31,111 bases of DNA. It comes from a virus. Taxonomy: Duplodnaviria > Heunggongvirae > Uroviricota > Caudoviricetes. The stretch lies in the IMG/VR virus record IMGVR_UViG_2563366800_000008. One strand, 5' to 3'. A program made the position numbers and the translations under genes. This document shows, in pieces, positions 1,507 through 9,741 of the stretch. A model generated the notes under the pieces. That model worked only from the letters and a program-made list of their open reading frames with translations, was not told where the DNA came from and ran no database searches. Positions within the stretch are counted from its first letter, which is position 1; every line of letters begins with the position of its first letter.

Positions 1507-2106
1507 TCAGCCAGCTTTATTTCGCGTGCTCAGCTTCGGCGCGGCTTGAATCTGTTCATTGGGATCACGTTGTTCAAAAATCTCTCTATCTGCACTGGCT
1601 TCCAAATCAGCTACCATCGGCATTAAAGCGTTCAGCCCACCTTGCATGAAAACCTTAATAACATACTGTTTTTGACGCTCTGTTAAGTTGTCGAAAAGCA
1701 TTATCCATAGGTCCCGAGCTGTTGAGCTTGGTGACGATAAGGCTGAGTCAGGTATAACTGAGCGCTCTTCTACCCCCAAGAATTTCTTTGTTTCTTCTGG
1801 CAAGACCGATACATGATATTCATATGCTTTCGATTTAGCCTTCTTACGTTTCAACTTAGGATTATTACTCACAAGTTGTTCCAGTTTCCGCCGGACATTC
1901 GGCGCTCCACTGGGGAAACCTGGTAGACCAATACAATCCTGAACTGACACCCATTCACTAAAATCAACCATATCATTCACCGTACTTTTCTGTGTTATTG
2001 AAAAATACATCTGGTACTTTTTTGTGATTAACCACGGAAAATCAAGTAACGAATTGATTTTAAATAAAATATCATGGTTAACCTCATCAACCATAAAAGT
2101 ACGCAA
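1507..2106 (-). CDS. c: Mu c-type repressor (winged-helix DNA-binding)
   Basis: 199-aa ORF transcribed away from the early operon, at the left end as in Mu. Segment GGLNALMPMV resembles the Mu repressor as I recall it. ORF-track start is a TTG at 2104-2106; first ATG is at 2092-2094, so the true start is uncertain. Confidence 0.7.
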   Translation of the reverse strand: MRTFMVDEVNHDILFKINSLLDFPWLITKKYQMYFSITQKSTVNDMVDFSEWVSVQDCIGLPGFPSGAPNVRRKLEQLVSNNPKLKRKKAKSKAYEYHVSVLPEETKKFLGVEERSVIPDSALSSPSSTARDLWIMLFDNLTERQKQYVIKVFMQGGLNALMPMVADLEASADREIFEQRDPNEQIQAAPKLSTRNKAG

Positions 2107-2200: not shown

Positions 2201-2437
2201 ATGATGACCAAAAGCCAAGACTGGCACCCGGAAGACATCAAAGCAGCGATTAGGAAACGTGGGATGACTACCAGTCAGCTCTCCAGAAGCAACGGATTAG
2301 CGGAATCAACATTACGAAATGTATTCCGCCACCACTGGCCGAAAGGGGAAAAAATTATTGCTGAGTTTCTGGGGCTTACCCCCAGAGATATTTGGCCCTC
2401 ACGTTATGAAGCTGTATCAGTCAAAGAGGTTGCATAA
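2201..2437 (+). CDS. ner: Ner-like DNA-binding transcriptional regulator
   Basis: 78-aa ORF; HHWPKGEKIIAEFLGLTPRDIWPSRY resembles Mu Ner. AAGGA Shine-Dalgarno 7 nt upstream. Stop overlaps the transposase start (TAATG). Confidence 0.85.
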   Translation: MMTKSQDWHPEDIKAAIRKRGMTTSQLSRSNGLAESTLRNVFRHHWPKGEKIIAEFLGLTPRDIWPSRYEAVSVKEVA

Positions 2438-4419
2438 TGGATTTCTGGGTTACCGCAAAAGAATGCGTAGGAATTTGTTCTTTTCCTAATGCAGAAAAGA
2501 ACGTCAGAAAACATTTGGAGTCTTTTGTCAGTGGACGTAGTGAACTACGCCGTAAACGTGCTGGCACCAAAGCATTCGAATACCACATATCGGTGTTGCC
2601 ACCTGAAGTCCGCGCTGAACTGCTGGCCGCACGTGGCCTGATTGAAACATCATCCGGGCTGATTACATTGCCACAGGAGCCTGAGCGCGTGGCGGCTGAC
2701 GATCTGGAACGCCAGCGACTGTGGTCTGCATGGGAGAAAGCTACCGGCGAGCAGCGTCTGCATGCAGAACGCCGGACTAAAGCTGCCGCGCTGGTGGCGG
2801 AACTGATGGCTTCCGGCATCGGCAATCGTAAGGCGATCACGCTGGCAGCAAAACAGCTGCAAATCAGTGAAGGTACGCTGCGCAATCTTTACTACAAAGT
2901 CAAAGACCATAGTCCTGACCTCTGGGGTCCGGTACTGCTTGACCGCCGTGTGCGTGAAAAACGTCAGACTGGCCGGACTGCCGATATCTCTGAAGATGCC
3001 TGGCAGTTCTTCCTGGGCGATTATCTGCGAAACGAAGCGCCGTTCTTCTCCAAAAGCTATGAGCGCCTTGAAAAGGCGGCAGATGCTCATGGCTGGATTA
3101 TTCCCGCTGAGCGCACTCTGCGCCGCAAGCTAGAACGTGAAGTTGATCCGCGTATCGTCGTTGCCACCCGTGAGGGCGAGAACGCGCTGGCGCAGATGTA
3201 TCCGTCGCAGCAGCGCACCGTGGCATATCTTCATGCGATGGAGTGGATCAATGGCGACGGTTACCAGCACAACGTGTTTGTCCGTTGGTTTAACGGCGAC
3301 ATCATCCGTCCTAAAACGTGGTTCTGGCAGGATGTCCACAGTCGCAAAATTATTGGCTGGCGTGCTGATTTGTCGGAGAACAGTGACAGCATCCGTTTAT
3401 CCCTGATGGATACCATCCGCGCTTACGGTAAGCCTAAACATGTGACCATCGATAACACCCGCGCTGCTGCAAATAAATGGCTGTCCGGTGGCGTTCCTAA
3501 CCGTTACCGCTTCAAAGTCAAACCTGATGACCCGATGGGGATCATCCCTCTGCTGGGAATGAAGCTGCACTGGACGGGGGTGATTGGCGGTAAGGGCTGG
3601 GGACAGGCAAAGCCCGTTGAACGTGCCTTCGGCGTGGGCGGTCTGGGCGAATATATCGACAAACATCCTGCGCTGGCTGGAGCATTTGCCGGTGAAAACG
3701 TCAGCTCCAAGCCAGAGAACTACGGCAGCCTGGCGGTGGATGTGGATACATTCCTGGAAACCATCAGCGAAGGTGTCGCCATGTTCAACGCGAAGGCCGG
3801 GCGCGAGACCGAGATGTGCCGGGGGGAACTGTCCTTCGACCAGGCGTTTGAGCGCAGCTACAGCCAGTCAGTCATCACCCGTATGACCGAAGAGCAAATT
3901 CGTCAACTGATGCTGCCTGCGGAAGCTGTACGCGTGAAGACTACAGGCGAATTTACGATGGAGTGCGGGGGCTCGTTATTTGGCCGTAAGAATACTTACT
4001 GGAGTGAACAGCTCGTCAGCCACCGCTCGCGCAAAATCACCGTCCGGTTTGATCCAAGGAACCTGCACGGAGAAGTCGCCTGTTATGACCTCGACGGCCG
4101 TTTCCTTTGCATGGCTGAGTGTCGTGCCGCCGTGGCCTTTGGCGATACCGAGGCTGGACGTGAACACAACCGTGCACGCCGCGAGATGATCAAGAGTACG
4201 AAGAAAGCGACTAAGGCTCTGAACCGTATGACGGCGATTGAGGTGAATGACCTGCTGCCGAAGACTGAGCATGCAGAACTGCCGGAGCGGCATGTGGTGG
4301 AGCGTGTATTTACCCTGGGCAACACCGTCAAGCGCGTGGAGGACATACAGGAAACGCAGAGCGAAAACGACGTTATTTTCCAGCAGTTTGTTAATAAGGC
4401 TAAACAGGCACGGAAATAA
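2437..4419 (+). CDS. A: MuA-type DDE transposase
   Basis: 660-aa ORF directly after ner. N-terminal region resembles the repressor DNA-binding domain, as in MuA/c. Size and position match MuA. Confidence 0.9.
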   Translation: MDFWVTAKECVGICSFPNAEKNVRKHLESFVSGRSELRRKRAGTKAFEYHISVLPPEVRAELLAARGLIETSSGLITLPQEPERVAADDLERQRLWSAWEKATGEQRLHAERRTKAAALVAELMASGIGNRKAITLAAKQLQISEGTLRNLYYKVKDHSPDLWGPVLLDRRVREKRQTGRTADISEDAWQFFLGDYLRNEAPFFSKSYERLEKAADAHGWIIPAERTLRRKLEREVDPRIVVATREGENALAQMYPSQQRTVAYLHAMEWINGDGYQHNVFVRWFNGDIIRPKTWFWQDVHSRKIIGWRADLSENSDSIRLSLMDTIRAYGKPKHVTIDNTRAAANKWLSGGVPNRYRFKVKPDDPMGIIPLLGMKLHWTGVIGGKGWGQAKPVERAFGVGGLGEYIDKHPALAGAFAGENVSSKPENYGSLAVDVDTFLETISEGVAMFNAKAGRETEMCRGELSFDQAFERSYSQSVITRMTEEQIRQLMLPAEAVRVKTTGEFTMECGGSLFGRKNTYWSEQLVSHRSRKITVRFDPRNLHGEVACYDLDGRFLCMAECRAAVAFGDTEAGREHNRARREMIKSTKKATKALNRMTAIEVNDLLPKTEHAELPERHVVERVFTLGNTVKRVEDIQETQSENDVIFQQFVNKAKQARK

Positions 4420-4514
4420 AAAAGCGACGTAGTGAGCGCCGCTTCTGAATTAAGTGAATCAGTTTTAACACCTGAATAATTACAGGCCATTTAAAAAATA
4501 CAGGATTAATAATC

Positions 4515-5453
4515 ATGACGCAAATTAACCATGATGTTGTGCGCAGTGCCATTCGTGAACTTATCGACAGCAAGACGATTTCCGGTGCAGCGCTGGCGCG
4601 TGAGACCGGTACATCAACCGCGACGGTTTCACAGTTCCTGAACGGGAAATACAAAGGTGACAATGACACCGTAGCTGCCAGCCTGAATACCTGGCTTGAA
4701 AGTCACAACGCCGCGAAAACCACGCTTCCGGTGGCCCCTGATTTCGTTGAGACACCGACCTCTCAGAAAATCCTCGCCACCCTGACGTGGGCGCAGCTGG
4801 CCGGGACGATTGTGCTGGTTTACGGCAATCCGGGCGTGGGTAAGACAAAGGCTATCCGGCAGTATGCCGCAGGCGGTAATAACGTCTGGCACATCACCGC
4901 CAGCAAATCCCGCAGCAATGAGCTGGAGACCCTGTATGAACTGGCCCTGAAAATGGGCATCAGCGATGCGCCATACCGCCGTGGTGCACTCTCTCGCCTG
5001 CTGCGCCAGCGTCTGCCGGACACGCGCGGCCTGATAGTGGTGGATGAAGCCGACTGGCTGAGTCTGGATGCGGTGGAAGAGCTGCGTATTCTCCAGGAGG
5101 AATGTGGCGTGGGGCTGGCACTGGTGGGTAACCACAAGGTCTATGACCGTCTTACCGGCGGCCAGCGCAGCGTGGATTTTGCCCGCCTGTTCTCCCGCGT
5201 GTCCAAGAAGTACGTCATCAATACCGTTTCCGCTGGTGACGTGGACAGCTTCTGCGATGCCTGGCAGGTCACCGGCGCTGACGAACGCAAGCTGCTGAAG
5301 GCTATCGCCCGACGTCCGGGGGCGCTGCGTTCTCTGTCGCACATCCTGCCGCTGGCCGGAATTTACGCTCAGGGCAAGGGTGAGACCATTGGCACGGCGC
5401 ACATCCAGTCCGCCATGCTGGAGCTGGGCCACAGCGGTATCGGAGAGGAGTGA
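4515..5453 (+). CDS. B: MuB-type AAA+ ATPase, transposition target DNA activator
   Basis: 312-aa ORF with Walker A motif GNPGVGKT and N-terminal HTH-like region; same length and position as Mu B. Confidence 0.9.
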   Translation: MTQINHDVVRSAIRELIDSKTISGAALARETGTSTATVSQFLNGKYKGDNDTVAASLNTWLESHNAAKTTLPVAPDFVETPTSQKILATLTWAQLAGTIVLVYGNPGVGKTKAIRQYAAGGNNVWHITASKSRSNELETLYELALKMGISDAPYRRGALSRLLRQRLPDTRGLIVVDEADWLSLDAVEELRILQEECGVGLALVGNHKVYDRLTGGQRSVDFARLFSRVSKKYVINTVSAGDVDSFCDAWQVTGADERKLLKAIARRPGALRSLSHILPLAGIYAQGKGETIGTAHIQSAMLELGHSGIGEE

Positions 5454-5457
5454 CATC

Positions 5458-5697
5458 ATGATCGCCGAACGTATTGCAGAGCACATCAGCATGGCAGAAG
5501 CGGCGCAGAACTGGCTGCGTGCGCGTGGCAGTCGCGTGACTGACGTTCGGGTGTTTATGCGTCGCCCGCTGCTGGAGATTGCCTGCCCGCCGGTTGAGCT
5601 GCTTAACAGCGCAGAGCGCATTGCTGAATCACACAACGGTGGCACCCGCTCCGTCTGGGTCGCCAGTCTGGAAGGTTGCCGGATTATCTGGAGGTAA
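5458..5697 (+). CDS. Hypothetical early-region protein
   Basis: 79-aa ORF from ATG 5458 with GAGGAG 9 nt upstream; sits where Mu has kil. No family recognised. Confidence 0.5.
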   Translation: MIAERIAEHISMAEAAQNWLRARGSRVTDVRVFMRRPLLEIACPPVELLNSAERIAESHNGGTRSVWVASLEGCRIIWR

Positions 5698-5699
5698 GC

Positions 5700-5990
5700 A
5701 TGGGGTGGAGAACGGGTAAAACATGGTCCCCCGAAGAGCTTCGCATTCTTGAGCAGAGTGCAGGGAAAGTCAGTGTTATCGGGCTGGCTCAGCAACTGGG
5801 ACGTACAAAACAGTCCGTTCAGAATTGCGCTCTTCGTCTTGGACTGTCACTGCGTATTCGTACAGAGGACGAGCATGATGCGTATTTATGCCGTGAGCTT
5901 TATAAGGAGGGGCTGACCGTTGCGATCATCGCAGAAAAAATGGAAATGTCCCGTCGTCAGGTTTTTAACATCGTTTATCGCGACAGCTAA
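5700..5990 (+). CDS. Hypothetical protein with two HTH-like segments, putative DNA-binding
   Basis: 96-aa ORF from ATG 5700 with GGAGG upstream. Segments VIGLAQQLGRTKQSVQNCALRLGL and LTVAIIAEKMEMSRRQVFNIV look like helix-turn-helix motifs. Confidence 0.5.
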   Translation: MGWRTGKTWSPEELRILEQSAGKVSVIGLAQQLGRTKQSVQNCALRLGLSLRIRTEDEHDAYLCRELYKEGLTVAIIAEKMEMSRRQVFNIVYRDS

Positions 5991-6004
5991 CTTAAAGGTT
6001 TTTT

Positions 6005-6280
6005 ATGACTGAGAAACAGCAATCAATATTAATCGCTTATGCGTGGGCCAGCGGGCTGATTGAATTTGGTCAGACACTCCCGGAAGGCGCTTTACCTATC
6101 GCGAGCGCCCGTCATCACAAGCGGCTCCGGGAGGTCATAAATGTTTACGCACGCCACGGATATGCCCCTGGGCAGCTACTGGTTCCGGGGATTCCTGAAG
6201 CAGCCACCCAGAACGAAGCCGGAGTGGCTCTGACAAAGTTCTGTTTTTATGTTGAACGCGCATTACTGAATAAGGATTAA
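6005..6280 (+). CDS. Hypothetical early-region protein
   Basis: 91-aa ORF, AAGG upstream, same strand and tight packing as neighbours. No family recognised. Confidence 0.5.
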   Translation: MTEKQQSILIAYAWASGLIEFGQTLPEGALPIASARHHKRLREVINVYARHGYAPGQLLVPGIPEAATQNEAGVALTKFCFYVERALLNKD

Positions 6281-6284
6281 AACA

Positions 6285-6536
6285 ATGGCTAAACAGGTTA
6301 TCACCATTGTCATTGAGGATGGCATCGTTCAGAAAAGTGACAAATCAATTAATAACGAACTACCTGAAGGGAAACTCAATATTCAGTTTCATCTTAATAA
6401 CACAAATGATGATGGTTCATTTTCGTTTCTGGTTGCTGAAGGTCTGTCAGCTATTTTCCCGATGGCGATCCAGCAGGTCACCACGTTTGTGAAAGCAAGG
6501 GTGGAGCAGGATAACCGTAAAATAATCAAACACTGA
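6285..6536 (+). CDS. Hypothetical early-region protein
   Basis: 83-aa ORF, lower GC than neighbours, 4 bp after the previous ORF. No family recognised. Confidence 0.45.
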   Translation: MAKQVITIVIEDGIVQKSDKSINNELPEGKLNIQFHLNNTNDDGSFSFLVAEGLSAIFPMAIQQVTTFVKARVEQDNRKIIKH

Positions 6537-6543
6537 GGTTGAT

Positions 6544-7071
6544 ATGAAAGCACCTAAAAAACCACGAGCCAAGTCTGCTGCGGCAGTGGCCGTTCCGCAG
6601 TCACGTGAAGACGTGATTAACGATATCCGAAAAATTGGCGACATCACCCGTGTCATTTTGCGCCGTGAAACAGAACTGAATGACAAACTGGCCGAGCTGA
6701 CTAACGACGCCGCTCCCGGAATTGAAGCGCTCAAGAAAGAGCTGGGCCGCTTACAAACTGGCGTCCAGACGTGGTGTGAAGCCAACCGTGCAGAGCTTAC
6801 GAAAGACGGTAAGACCAAGACGGCCAACCTGACAACGGGCGAAGTTCGCTGGCGTAAGCGCCCGCCCAGCGTCACCATTCGCAAAGTTGAAGATGTTATT
6901 GCGTTACTCAAGAAATTCAGCCTGGGTAAATTTCTTCGCAATAAAGAGGAAATTAATAAAGAGGCAATTCTTGCATCACCGAATGAAGTTAAGGGAATTG
7001 CAGGGATATCCATTAAATCAGATGTTGAGGATTTTGAAATAATCCCATTTGAACAAACTGTAACTGATTAA
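6544..7071 (+). CDS. gam: Gam host-nuclease inhibitor (DNA end-binding, Ku-like)
   Basis: 175-aa ORF; segments TWCEANRAELTKDGKTKTANLTTGEVRWRKRPPSV and KSDVEDFEIIPFEQ resemble Mu Gam as recalled. Confidence 0.85.
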   Translation: MKAPKKPRAKSAAAVAVPQSREDVINDIRKIGDITRVILRRETELNDKLAELTNDAAPGIEALKKELGRLQTGVQTWCEANRAELTKDGKTKTANLTTGEVRWRKRPPSVTIRKVEDVIALLKKFSLGKFLRNKEEINKEAILASPNEVKGIAGISIKSDVEDFEIIPFEQTVTD

Positions 7072-7108
7072 TTAACTTTCTTTGATTCTCAGAATTTTAA
7101 TACGGTAT

Positions 7109-7137
7109 GCCTGCCGGGGCTTCGTGCACCCGCAGGC
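7109..7137 (+). other. GC-rich imperfect stem-loop between gam and the next ORF
   Basis: GCCTGC (7109-7114) pairs with GCAGGC (7132-7137), plus GGG/CCC inner pairs; no T-tract follows. Confidence 0.3.
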
Positions 7138-7160
7138 AACTAAATATGGAGTTTAAGCGA

Positions 7161-7817
7161 ATGACCAGGCATACGATTATCAATATCCAGCAGATACGTG
7201 ACGATATCTGCAAACGTAAAGCAATGCCGCCATTTGGCCCCGATACCAGTATTAATCGTCTTAAAACTATCAATGAGACCCAGCGCAGTTTCACTCTTGA
7301 AGTCGTGGAATTGTTGCTGGGTGAAATAGACGTCCTGTCAAAATCAGAATGGACACTGGCGGATGAACTGGTCAAGGCCCAAAAACGCATAGCTGAGCAG
7401 GAACGCACTAACACCGCCCAGGACGATCACATCAATCAGCAGGCAGACCGTATCGAATGCCTGGAAAAGAAAAACGACGATCTGGGCAAAGCTATTAGGG
7501 CCGCACTTCCATCGTTTTCACTGTCACCAGCAGCATCTGATGTTCTGGCCGAGCGCCAGCGGCAGATATCGGTTAAGGGGTACACTACACAGCAGGACGA
7601 CACATATATTGAAGGTGAGCTGGCCGCAGCGGCTATAAGTTACATAGAGCCTTTGGCGGCTGAAGAATACTGGCCTGCTGACTGGCATGATGACAGTTTC
7701 AAACCGTCAGACTATCGTCGAAATTTAGTGAAAGCATGTGCGCTTTTGATTGCAGAAATTGAGCGTATTGACCGCCAGTCGGAGGGAAATAACGATGAGC
7801 CGCGCATCCCTGATTAA
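7161..7817 (+). CDS. Hypothetical protein, coiled-coil N-terminal half and acidic C-terminal half
   Basis: ORF open from 7107; ATG 7161 has GGAG 9 nt upstream, with alternative ATGs at 7107 and 7146. Occupies the slot between gam and gemA. No family recognised. Confidence 0.5.
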   Translation: MTRHTIINIQQIRDDICKRKAMPPFGPDTSINRLKTINETQRSFTLEVVELLLGEIDVLSKSEWTLADELVKAQKRIAEQERTNTAQDDHINQQADRIECLEKKNDDLGKAIRAALPSFSLSPAASDVLAERQRQISVKGYTTQQDDTYIEGELAAAAISYIEPLAAEEYWPADWHDDSFKPSDYRRNLVKACALLIAEIERIDRQSEGNNDEPRIPD

Positions 7818-8322
7818 GTTAATCCATGTTGCCCGTCGCAATCTACAACTGGACGATGACACCTACCGCTCTGTACTGATGCGAGTGACGGGAAAGCAAA
7901 GCTGTCGTGACCTGAGAGTCGGCCAACTGGAGGATGTGCTGAAGGTACTGGAGGATAAGGGTTTCATTCGTACCCGTCCCCGTTCTCCGGCTCGCCGTCA
8001 TCGTGAGACAGATATCACCGCAAAGGTCCGCAGCATCTGGCGGCAGATGCATCTTGATGGGTTTATCCGTGATGGCAGCGATACCTCACTCGATTCGTTC
8101 GTCGCGAAGATGACTGTCAGAACCAACAAAGGTAAAGGTATCGCCAGCCTGGCATGGTGCCGTGGCGATAATCTTCTGATGGTGCTGGAAAGCCTCAAGC
8201 AATGGCACCTGAGAGAAATGACAGAGGCGCTGAGTCCGCGAGACCTGGCATTTCAGGATAATCGGGGTTATGACGCCATCAACAGCCTGTATTCCAGTAA
8301 AGTAAGAAAGGTGCGCACATGA
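7795..8322 (+). CDS. gemA: GemA-like protein (Mu gp16 family)
   Basis: N-terminus MSRASLIKLIHVARRNLQLDDDTYRSVLMRVTGKQSCRDL resembles Mu GemA. ATG at 7795; the ORF-track start at 7750 is a TTG. Confidence 0.75.
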   Translation: MSRASLIKLIHVARRNLQLDDDTYRSVLMRVTGKQSCRDLRVGQLEDVLKVLEDKGFIRTRPRSPARRHRETDITAKVRSIWRQMHLDGFIRDGSDTSLDSFVAKMTVRTNKGKGIASLAWCRGDNLLMVLESLKQWHLREMTEALSPRDLAFQDNRGYDAINSLYSSKVRKVRT

Positions 8323-8726
8323 GCGAAAAGCAGAATGACCTGTTTGGTGATATCCAGGATGACAGCATTCTGGAGCACCTGGACGATGACAGTTCGGCGG
8401 AAACTGTGCGTTTCCCTGCACTGCTGACAGAACTGAATACGCTGTTGCGTGGCGAACTGACAAAGCATGGTGTTGACCCACGAATCTCTCTGGAGCTGGT
8501 CTATGCGATTAGCTGTCAGATTGGTGGAATGCAGATTTATTTTCCACGCGGCCAGACTCTTGAGTCATTGATTCGTGATATGAAAATCTGGCGTGATTTC
8601 AATGGCAGAAACATCACAGAGTTGGTTGAGCGTTACCGTGTTACCTATAAAACGGTGTATAAAGCAATCCGGAGAATGCGAAAGTTAGAGCAAGGTAAGA
8701 GGCAGCTCTCATTTAATATGGAGTGA
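8319..8726 (+). CDS. mor: Mor/C-family transcriptional activator
   Basis: 135-aa ORF; DLFGD..DD.IL.HLD...RFPALL.EL..LLRGEL and C-terminal HTH TVYKAIRRMR resemble Mu Mor. Start overlaps the gemA stop (ATGA). Confidence 0.85.
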   Translation: MSEKQNDLFGDIQDDSILEHLDDDSSAETVRFPALLTELNTLLRGELTKHGVDPRISLELVYAISCQIGGMQIYFPRGQTLESLIRDMKIWRDFNGRNITELVERYRVTYKTVYKAIRRMRKLEQGKRQLSFNME

Positions 8727-8730
8727 TAAT

Positions 8731-9054
8731 ATGGTTGGTGTGATTGTTATTAACATAGTTTGTATTATATGTGTTTTTTGGGTTTTCTTTGATGCTACTT
8801 CTAACAACATAGGAAGTTATGTTGTTAGAGACGGTGTGCGAAAAGGATGTCGCAGAGGCATACACCCTGTGGTTTGGGCTGCGCTGAGTATATTTATACT
8901 TCCTTTTATTTGGTATCTGATCAACAGGAAATCTTTATTGATCGCTGCGGAAGAATATCCAGTAAAGACTGATAAAAGCGTAAGTTTTATTATTCTACTT
9001 TTGTTGGTATCAGGATGGTTGCTCTATCGCTACAAAGATTATTTATTCTATTAA
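8731..9054 (+). CDS. Small hydrophobic membrane protein (about 3 predicted TM segments), AT-rich moron-like gene
   Basis: 107-aa ORF with visibly lower GC than its flanks and three hydrophobic stretches; followed by an intrinsic terminator. Occupies the position of C in Mu but is not a Mor/C homologue. Confidence 0.55.
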   Translation: MVGVIVINIVCIICVFWVFFDATSNNIGSYVVRDGVRKGCRRGIHPVVWAALSIFILPFIWYLINRKSLLIAAEEYPVKTDKSVSFIILLLLVSGWLLYRYKDYLFY

Positions 9055-9070
9055 GTTATAGCCAATACAA

Positions 9071-9086
9071 TGAAGCCGGTTAATCC
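9071..9086 (+). promoter_or_regulatory. Conserved motif TGAAGCCGGTTAATCC upstream of the lysis operon; candidate late-promoter activator site
   Basis: Identical 16-mer recurs at 17045-17060 upstream of the head gene; both copies lie 76-80 nt before the first ATG of an operon. Confidence 0.45.
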
Positions 9087-9097
9087 GGCTTTTTTTT
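9073..9097 (+). terminator. Rho-independent terminator
   Basis: Perfect inverted repeat AAGCCGG-TTAAT-CCGGCTT followed by a run of T residues. Confidence 0.7.
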
Positions 9098-9150
9098 CGT
9101 CCGGCACATGATGGAAGGGAAATCTAACCCACTTCCAAAGGTGCCGTTTT

Positions 9151-9741
9151 ATGAACAACACCCCCGATTCTCCCGCATTTCGCAATGCTCTTGCTTTCGT
9201 GCTCAGCGCAGAACGCGGATATGTCAATGACCCCACTGACCGTGGCGGTGAAACTAACTTCGGTATATCAGATAAACGCGACGGTGTTGCCGATGGCATG
9301 ACCGACGTTAATGGCGATGGCAAGCCTGATACTCGTATTCGTGATTTAACGGTTGAACAGGCCGGACAGATTTACTTCCGTGACTACTGGTATCCGGCGT
9401 ATTGCCAGTTATGGCCGGATGATATCGCCCTGTTTGTCTTTGATTCTGCCGTCCAGCATGGCGTCAAAAAGGCTGTCCAGTTGCTTCAGGAAGCTGTGGG
9501 TTTCACTGGCAAAAGCGTTGACGGTATCGCCGGTAAAAACACCCGTGCAGCCGTTGAGCGTGCTGACCCTGACTGGCTGCTGAACCGTTTGTTTCTGCAA
9601 CGTTCCCGCTATTACGCCGACATCATCAAAGCAAACTCTTCGCAGGGCAAGTTCCTCAACGGCTGGTTTAACCGCCTTGACAACCTCGCTGACGCCTGTC
9701 GTGAGATTTCCGGTGTCCGCTATTCGGTAGCCCGGAGCTGA
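9151..9741 (+). CDS. Endolysin, GH108-type lysozyme with C-terminal peptidoglycan-binding domain
   Basis: 196-aa ORF; N-terminal LSAERGYVNDPTDRGGETNFGI and C-terminal region VDGIAGKNTRAAVE fit the GH108 plus PG_binding_3 architecture as I recall it. Confidence 0.8.
   Translation: MNNTPDSPAFRNALAFVLSAERGYVNDPTDRGGETNFGISDKRDGVADGMTDVNGDGKPDTRIRDLTVEQAGQIYFRDYWYPAYCQLWPDDIALFVFDSAVQHGVKKAVQLLQEAVGFTGKSVDGIAGKNTRAAVERADPDWLLNRLFLQRSRYYADIIKANSSQGKFLNGWFNRLDNLADACREISGVRYSVARS

Follow-up and report, generated by a model that had tools for sequence, protein, structure and literature searches.

The early accessory block described here spans positions 5458-7817 of a viral DNA of 31,111 nucleotides (nt) (IMG/VR record IMGVR_UViG_2563366800_000008; this whole stretch is called the window below). 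The listing of open reading frames (ORFs) and Pfam scans identify the window as a Mu-like transposable prophage of Escherichia coli. On balance, we favor the interpretation of the block as the semi-essential early segment of this prophage, a mosaic of Mu orthologues, Gam, swappable cassettes and an Ea22-like protein (ORF6, 7161-7817), with roles assigned by inference. Its six co-oriented genes would form one operon with ner, A and B and presumably be read from the early promoter; they would thus be expressed within minutes of infection or induction. In evolutionary terms, the block would be a mosaic and not a single system. This interpretation is built on the reality of the genes, the orthology of ORF1 and ORF2, the family memberships, the cassette behavior, and the architecture and distribution of the domains.

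An earlier note on this DNA had listed five unassigned small ORFs around gam, tightly packed on the early strand and with credible ribosome-binding sites, and had placed them in the accessory slot of the early region. The layout was confirmed throughout. All five ORFs lie on the plus strand at exactly the coordinates claimed (ORF listing, Table 1), and they coincide with coding-sequence calls of RefSeq in the 100%-identical prophage of E. coli ECONIH4, where each is labeled 'hypothetical protein'. The genes are separated by 2-14 nt (B to ORF1, 4 nt; ORF1 to ORF2, 2 nt; ORF2 to ORF3, 14 nt; ORF3 to ORF4, 4 nt; ORF4 to gam, 7 nt), save for a spacer of 89 nt between gam and ORF6. A purine-rich Shine-Dalgarno-like motif (GGAGAGGAG, GGAGG, AAAGG, AAGGA, GAGG, GGAG) is found 5-10 nt upstream of each start. 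The last 23 nt of ORF6 (7795-7817) are also the first 23 of gemA, and gemA in turn shares 4 nt with mor. Carriers of the ORF6-type C-terminal domain likewise end at or just before gemA in several further Mu-like phages; the overlap and this recurring arrangement hint at translational coupling. Promoter-like and terminator-like sites in 4400-9200 are no commoner than in shuffled sequence. On the plus strand, a convincing terminator first appears at 9072-9092. The block is thus placed inside one early operon, of which it forms the promoter-distal accessory part (c, ner, A, B, ..., gam, gemA, mor).

Since every ORF of the block matches a PHROG family (E 1e-25 to 1e-110) and all frames are open in orthologues at 73-96% nucleotide identity, they are real genes and not chance frames. 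Synonymous and non-synonymous codon changes numbered 19 and 9 in ORF1 (compared with ECONIH5), 39 and 23 in ORF2, 16 and 26 in ORF4, and 11 and 11 in ORF6. The ORFs are short, ORF4 has very few relatives, and frameshifted ORF4 copies exist in other assemblies (P0362, P0364), all of which would fit some of the five being chance frames or decaying pseudogenes. However, all five are intact in the diverged relatives and have Shine-Dalgarno motifs, PHROG families and RefSeq calls, which makes this explanation hardly credible. We took two long minus-strand ORFs (4629-5795 and 6447-7013) to be shadow frames of annotated genes.

Table 1. Features of the early accessory block and of the genes around it (aa, amino acids; HTH, helix-turn-helix; pI, isoelectric point; pLDDT, predicted local distance difference test score)
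Feature	Position	Strand	Description	Evidence
ORF1	5458..5697	+	79 aa, Mu Kil (gp5) orthologue by similarity	Mup05 similarity, phrog_2743
ORF2	5700..5990	+	96 aa, Mu gp9/E8 orthologue by similarity; small, basic, two HTH-like units	Mup09 similarity, phrog_323, HTH_23
ORF3	6005..6280	+	91 aa, stand-alone protein of a family from transposable phages, optional cassette	phrog_1518 E 1e-34
ORF4	6285..6536	+	83 aa, lineage-restricted, low-GC, fast-evolving orphan, optional cassette	phrog_18464 E 7e-56
gam	6544..7071	+	Mu Gam (Ku-like DNA-end-binding protein)	Pfam Phage_Mu_Gam E 1.3e-36
Hairpin in gam-ORF6 spacer (7072-7160)	7109..7137	+	conserved, GC-rich	GCCTGCCGGGG...CCCGCAGGC; RNA fold
ORF6 residues 1-45	7161..7295	+	basic two-helix N-terminal module specific to Mu-like prophages (predicted)	AlphaFold helices 3-20, 30-44, pLDDT 85-94; pI 10.3
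ORF6 residues 46-118	7296..7514	+	predicted single long helix (coiled-coil stalk)	AlphaFold, pLDDT >90 over most of length
ORF6 residues 119-218 and stop	7515..7817	+	acidic, portable, mainly four-helix C-terminal domain (predicted)	domain-only AlphaFold; pI 4.4
B	4515..5453	+	MuB-type transposition ATPase	Pfam Phage-MuB_C E 2e-22, AAA_22 E 2e-17
gemA	7795..8322	+		Pfam GemA E 5e-31
c	1507-2106	-	repressor	ORF listing and Pfam
ner	2201-2437		early operon	ORF listing and Pfam
A	2437-4419		transposase, early operon	ORF listing and Pfam
mor	8319-8726		early operon	ORF listing and Pfam

The earlier note had found only gam recognizable in the interval between B and gemA. This did not hold, as two further genes have counterparts in Mu. 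ORF1 is, to judge from its sequence, the orthologue of Mu Kil: its identity to Mup05 is 55% over 74 aa (E 4e-27), and its match to phrog_2743 covers the whole profile (positions 1-75 of 75, E 8.7e-36). It is the first gene after B and starts 4 nt past the B stop codon. The same arrangement is seen in Citrobacter and Klebsiella relatives, whose equivalent 79-aa genes carry PF26843 (Kil_protein). ORF1 itself had no match in searches of Pfam, NCBIfam, PADLOC and PDB sequences. According to the account of Waggoner (1989) given in PMC3961180, expression of Mu kil turns E. coli cells spherical; the same paper states that Mu Kil is unrelated to the Kil proteins of lambda or Rac. Because of the spherical phenotype and the missing kinship to these proteins, the PHROG label 'septation inhibition' is a loose one. 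Kil expression in Mu rounds and kills E. coli cells, and by orthology ORF1 would have this role as well.

ORF2 is the orthologue of Mu gp9/E8 with a predicted HTH, based on 46% identity to Mup09 (E 3e-24) and a match to phrog_323 ('D5-like regulator', E 3e-25). Of the two HTH units ascribed to it in the earlier note, the C-terminal one was substantiated (HTH_23 at residues 67-94, 29 bits against a Pfam cut-off of 24.6), but the N-terminal one was not, as the HTH_11/MarR_2 matches at residues 14-43 remained below the Pfam cut-off. When the halves of the protein were compared, no mutual similarity could be detected. The N-terminal half matches a regulator that adjoins a Gam-like gene in the non-transposable phage Dewey (E 2e-5). 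A literature search on the function of Mu gp9 yielded nothing specific. With its pI of 9.1, ORF2 would be a small basic DNA-binding protein, probably a regulator or a nucleoid-associated factor. As with every biochemical role given below to ORF3, ORF4 and ORF6, this is one that we infer. Not all five ORFs are homologous to characterized Mu proteins with housekeeping roles: ORF3, ORF4 and ORF6 are without a characterized homologue.

These three genes are swappable cassettes, and ORF3 and ORF4 are independent of each other. The order HTH gene-ORF3-gam without ORF4 occurs in four close relatives (L032, L041, L045, L022), and the order HTH gene-ORF4-gam without ORF3 in ECONIH5 and LR536431, whereas the window has both. 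The 91/83-aa pair which the earlier note had singled out is therefore not a unit. In E. coli LR536431, the slot of ORF6 (L003:4570-5166) is occupied by two unrelated small genes, one of them on the opposite strand (phrog_6075, phrog_38610), which identifies the interval between gam and gemA as a site of cassette exchange. The boundary of the cassette is located just 3' of the hairpin at 7109-7137. This hairpin is identical in the relatives, and in LR536431 the different downstream cassette begins right after it. RNA folding of 7072-7165 gave -27.2 kcal/mol (z -2.6). The hairpin may serve in RNA processing or attenuation, or it may mark a recombination boundary. At the equivalent position, the inverted repeat of Mu is a different one. 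The gam product upstream of this spacer is 56% identical to Mup10 of Mu (E 8e-66) and, as a Ku-like protein, would bind and shield double-stranded DNA ends.

ORF4 is almost an orphan. Only 6 representatives among 1.84 billion were found at E<=1e-3; four of these belong to the same clade or are its frameshifted fragments, and two are long proteins matched over short stretches. A tblastn search of 50,697 phage records gave no match, nor did sequence searches of Pfam, NCBIfam, PADLOC and PDB. The GC content of ORF4 (0.40) is the lowest of the block, and its non-synonymous changes accumulate faster than its synonymous ones. The gene would be a recently acquired and rapidly diverging orphan. The possibility that it is a diverged Mu gp7 was rejected, as hhalign aligns only the first 8 residues and the two proteins belong to different PHROGs.

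ORF3 has 145 homologues, all of about 90 aa and without a Pfam family, with the family motifs WASGLIEFG and LLVPGvPEA. They are plentiful in Salmonella and other enterobacterial prophages and confined almost wholly to transposable phages. ORF3 itself had no match in Pfam, NCBIfam, PADLOC or PDB, and no homologue was found in a comparison with the Mu proteins. Nearly all of 46 ORF3-family loci from IMG/VR are transposable phages with matches to MuA, MuB or GemA, and in 43 of them Gam (17 loci) or DUF3164 (26 loci) is encoded within about 1 kb of the ORF3-like gene. The latter often lies directly beside gam or the DUF3164 gene: enterobacterial loci have it upstream, Pseudomonas and some other loci have it downstream. 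Of the transposable phages that carry an ORF3 gene, most have DUF3164 (PF11363) and not Mu Gam in the gam slot (L008, L024, L020; 26 of the 46 loci L026-L071). This suggests that DUF3164 is a positional, perhaps a functional, substitute for Gam. From the neighborhood of the gene we would propose, though with little confidence, that ORF3 aids the end-binding protein, as an accessory partner of Gam or DUF3164 and not as a nuclease inhibitor in its own right.

The databases do give the family the latter function: it is labeled 'host nuclease inhibitor' in phrog_1518 and 'host nuclease inhibitor protein' at NCBI, and the profile phrog_18351 holds both Gam and ORF3 segments. However, ORF3 has no similarity to Gam (no PF07352 match, no BLAST similarity). 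To the 266-aa ORF13 of phage MP38, which has an N-terminal Gam part and a C-terminal ORF3-like part, it aligns solely at residues 178-246, past the Gam part. This protein was considered as a Rosetta-stone fusion and rejected, because the DNA alignment revealed a frameshift of 1 nt: the fused record (L004:3470-4270) is the PcyII-40 sequence (L011:4593-5394) minus one base. By this single-base deletion, the final ~17 codons of Gam are read in the wrong frame; the conserved C-terminal tail of Gam (SGIEDF..PFE) is lost, and reading continues into the next gene. In JBD24, JBD69, Forsyth and PcyII-40, the protein of ~93 aa is encoded by a separate gene. Given the frameshifted fusion in MP38 and the separate genes elsewhere, the name of ORF3 is most likely a transferred annotation, and the MP38 ORF13 record is the likely origin of this name across the family. 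That ORF3 itself inhibits host nucleases, as the NCBI and PHROG names state, is thus highly unlikely. MP38 also encodes another ORF3-like domain, which makes up the N-terminus of the 162-aa ORF15 (L004:4583-5071; phrog_1518 E 1e-24), two genes downstream of gam.

The third cassette, ORF6 (218 aa, pI 4.8), had been described in the earlier note as a coiled-coil and acidic protein, and both attributes are in keeping with our results: the AlphaFold model contains a helix of 73 residues (46-118), and the pI is low. According to the predictions, the protein has three parts (Table 1). The N-terminal module occurs in the same slot upstream of gemA in other prophages, where it is joined to a different C-terminus (Citrobacter P0040) or present in a version without the stalk (Klebsiella P0030, 147 aa). 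The stalk holds a KRIAE(L/Q)E junction that is common to Ead/Ea22-like proteins, with similar sequences in gene 30 of phage Dewey and in P0066. For the C-terminal domain, the full-length AlphaFold model was poor (pLDDT 50-70). When residues 118-218 were modeled separately with a more diverse alignment, a compact helical domain was predicted (pLDDT 87, predicted template modeling score 0.79).

This C-terminal domain is very widespread. It is present in at least 7,817 protein clusters at E<=1e-3, many of which have a PF13935 N-terminus, and in 156 phage records from Pseudomonas, Rhodobacter, Acinetobacter, Burkholderia, E. coli, Klebsiella and cyanobacterial hosts. In several Mu-like lineages, genes that encode this domain are again found immediately upstream of gemA. 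The family can be recognized by the motif A..DV.AER.RQ..G....DD....EL..AA..Y..WP....KP...R..LVKA.AL..AEIER.DR and has about 20 invariant residues, many of them charged; the acidic residues E131, D146, E199, E201 and D204 are invariant and D147 is nearly so. PF13935 (Ead_Ea22) was matched by 40 of 146 aligned family members; Dewey gene 30 matches it with E 8e-23. Over the C-terminal domain, no Pfam family was matched in any of the 146 members, nor in precomputed annotations. ORF6 itself had no match in Pfam (E<=0.1, beyond a sub-threshold Qua1 hit with E 0.034), NCBIfam, PADLOC or PDB sequences. A fold search with the model of the C-terminal domain returned no significant match to a solved structure. 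In the BFVD fold search, the significant matches were uncharacterized proteins that apparently belong to the same family. All-alpha nucleoside triphosphate (NTP) pyrophosphohydrolases were the recurring named matches in three structure libraries, each of them insignificant, though their recurrence is suggestive. Literature searches yielded nothing specific on this domain type or on Ea22-like proteins in anti-defence.

In Ea22 proteins, a short N-terminus is followed by a coiled coil, and the acidic C-terminal domains are mosaic; both proteins studied in vitro, those of lambda and P27, are tetrameric (PMC10834534). In lambda and in Shiga toxin (Stx) phages, Ea22 is pro-lysogenic (PMC10834534, PMC7093339). 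Models and alignments make ORF6 an Ea22-type protein in its build, yet it fails the sequence signature of the family, with no PF13935 match at E<=0.1 and no significant BLAST similarity to lambda Ea22. We would describe ORF6 as an N-terminal module specific to the lineage, joined to a coiled-coil stalk by which the protein most likely forms oligomers, and to an acidic four-helix domain that thousands of Ead/Ea22-like prophage proteins have in common. The analogy with Ea22 suggests that it may tune the lytic/lysogenic outcome or the physiology of the host. With its invariant charged residues, the C-terminal domain would bind or hydrolyze a small, possibly nucleotide, ligand or bind a conserved host target.

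Other explanations were weighed for the three cassettes. Following the earlier note, which ascribed host-takeover and anti-defence functions to this slot, they could be an anti-defence island, in which ORF3, ORF4 and/or ORF6 inhibit host immunity (restriction, RecBCD-guarding retrons, nucleotide signaling) and act early, before the DNA is attacked. This would agree with their behavior as swappable cassettes in an otherwise conserved operon, with the low GC content and the excess of non-synonymous change in ORF4, and with the strongly acidic nature of ORF6 and its C-terminal domain, which resembles that of DNA mimics. ORF3 adjoins Gam, and host guard systems are known to sense the action of Gam on RecBCD. 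A few carriers of the domain are also annotated as restriction-alleviation (Lar-like zinc-ribbon) fusions, but the label 'Lar restriction alleviation', traced on one such carrier, could not be reproduced by Pfam at E<=1. The PADLOC profiles of anti-phage defence systems matched no ORF of the block, and no similarity to a characterized anti-defence protein was found, though a dedicated anti-defence library was not searched. Moreover, the ~20 invariant residues of the ORF6-type domain, many of them Arg, Lys, Glu or Asp, are maintained across phages of alpha-, beta- and gamma-proteobacteria and of cyanobacteria, which is atypical of fast-evolving inhibitors or DNA mimics, and ORF3 is likewise highly conserved. 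We therefore regard an anti-defence island as possible but doubtful.

The other explanation concerns ORF6 only. Its C-terminal domain could be a divergent all-alpha NTP pyrophosphohydrolase (MazG/DCTPP1/AF0060-like), held on an oligomeric stalk, that degrades a nucleotide, for instance a deoxynucleoside triphosphate, an alarmone or an immune signaling nucleotide. The top, though insignificant, Foldseek matches in PDB were DCTPP1/RS21-C6 (2a3q, 7mu5, 2oie) and the PRA-PH protein HisN2 (7bgn). In BFVD, the named proteins that followed the domain's own family included several with a 'dATP/dGTP diphosphohydrolase N-terminal domain', one with a MazZ domain, and others with a 'Nucleotide modification associated domain'. 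The invariant acidic residues listed above would suit such an enzyme, and DUF551, another C-terminal type of Ea22, is also found in MazZ-type enzymes (PMC10834534). Still, none of the 146 members matched MazG, DUF550 or PRA-PH in Pfam even at E<=10, no profile match to PDB sequences was obtained, and the canonical helix motifs EExxE...ExxD are not evident in the alignment, so that we judge this assignment unlikely. A more far-reaching version, to which we give quite a small chance, joins it to ORF3. In this version, the ORF6-type domain would be an unrecognized enzyme or ligand-binding domain, possibly a deep MazG-like branch, carried on interchangeable N-terminal modules in thousands of temperate phages (lambdoid Ead/Ea22-like, Mu-like, Pseudomonas, Rhodobacter and Acinetobacter phages and cyanophages). 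It would destroy or sequester a nucleotide that governs lysis-lysogeny or nucleotide-based immunity, and ORF3 would be an obligatory partner of Gam or DUF3164.

Our preferred reading of the block as a semi-essential early segment with an end-binding accessory protein and an Ea22-like ORF6 has points that weigh against it, too. The adjacency of ORF3 and gam or the DUF3164 gene could be a gene order inherited within a syntenic group of phages and not a functional coupling, and the sole apparent Gam-ORF3 fusion, ORF13 of MP38, is no Rosetta-stone evidence. Some ORF6 orthologues, such as P0030, are without the coiled coil; oligomerization may thus not be essential. ORF6 is without the N-terminal PF13935 signature, and its C-terminal domain has no similarity and is unrelated to those of the Ea22 proteins of lambda, Sakai (variant 1) and P27 (variant 3), which belong to the versions treated in PMC10834534 and PMC7093339. 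The transfer of 'pro-lysogenic' to ORF6 is therefore by analogy only.

The element is known only as a prophage. Among 5,426 complete E. coli genomes, it was matched in 5, in 3 of these at >=99% identity; the 2.6-kb block is 100% identical in 3 complete E. coli genomes and 83-88% identical in 2 more. A nucleotide search of 50,697 deposited phage records found no near match to the block. The left end of the prophage is at about 1210, where the sequence common with ECONIH4 starts (TGACTAGTG... / TGACTAGTGACAG...). The host DNA to its left (1-1209) encodes a diguanylate cyclase-like GGDEF protein (GGEEF motif) on the minus strand. In ECONIH4, the identical prophage does not lie beside a GGDEF gene but sits inside a lambdoid tail assembly gene, and these different insertion sites are consistent with transpositional integration. 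At the other end of the early region, mor is followed by a hydrophobic ORF of 107 aa (8731-9054) with a very low GC content (0.35), which looks like a moron that ends the early operon. The terminator at 9072-9092, 3' of this ORF, is a strong bidirectional terminator-like hairpin. A sub-threshold match to sroD in Rfam (9025-9097) overlaps it; the Rfam scan of 4400-9300 had no match above threshold.

Compared with known systems, the block resembles the semi-essential early region of Mu (kil, gp6-gp9, gam, gp11-gp15, gemA, mor). Operon position and order (B, kil, ..., gp9-like HTH gene, gam, ..., gemA, mor) are the same, there is orthology for Kil, gp9, Gam, GemA and Mor (46-63% identity), and the accessory genes are dispensable and variable in both. 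However, gp6, gp7, gp8 and gp11-gp15 of Mu have no counterpart here, ORF3, ORF4 and ORF6 have none in Mu, and the interval between B and gemA is ~2.3 kb instead of ~3.9 kb. Pseudomonas Mu-like phages of the D3112/MP38/JBD24 type (Casadabanvirus) have an ORF3 homologue (~50% identity) right after or near gam, and in some of them a gene between B and gam encodes the ORF6-type C-terminal domain (PcyII-40 gene 08, 209 aa), but they have the reversed order of gam and the ORF3-like gene and neither Kil nor ORF4. With the Ea22/Ead family of lambda and Stx phages (PF13935, IPR025153), ORF6 shares the three-part plan (short N-terminus, long coiled coil, exchangeable acidic C-terminal domain), the position of an early gene beside recombination and end-protection genes, the KRIAELE-type junction, and a C-terminal domain that is also found on many PF13935 proteins, e.g. 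Dewey gene 30. It differs in that the Pfam scan gave no DUF551 match and in that its domain type is not described in PMC10834534 and PMC7093339. The all-alpha NTP pyrophosphohydrolases (MazG, DCTPP1/RS21-C6, AF0060, DUF550/MazZ) resemble its C-terminal domain in being small helical bundles with conserved acidic residues, but there is no significant structural match and no link by sequence profiles, and the catalytic motifs are unrecognizable.

All in all, the block can be called an ordinary variant of the semi-essential early region known from Mu. Beside the conserved Mu genes kil, gp9 and gam, it holds three cassettes that are members of existing uncharacterized families. Two modest leads come out of it. 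One is the neighborhood of ORF3 and Gam or DUF3164, which provides a concrete interaction to test; the other is an Ea22-type C-terminal domain with a possible nucleotide-hydrolase fold. For annotation, 'host nuclease inhibitor protein', as given to hundreds of prophage proteins of ~90 aa, appears to be based on a frameshifted record and is not to be trusted. The spacers between gp9 and gam and between gam and gemA are exchange sites in Mu-like prophages and thus a sensible hunting ground for accessory and counter-defence genes. The C-terminal family, with at least 7,800 clusters and neither a Pfam model nor a solved structure, is one alternative 'head' of the enigmatic Ea22-type proteins, and for it there is now a confidently predicted fold and a list of invariant residues for mutation.

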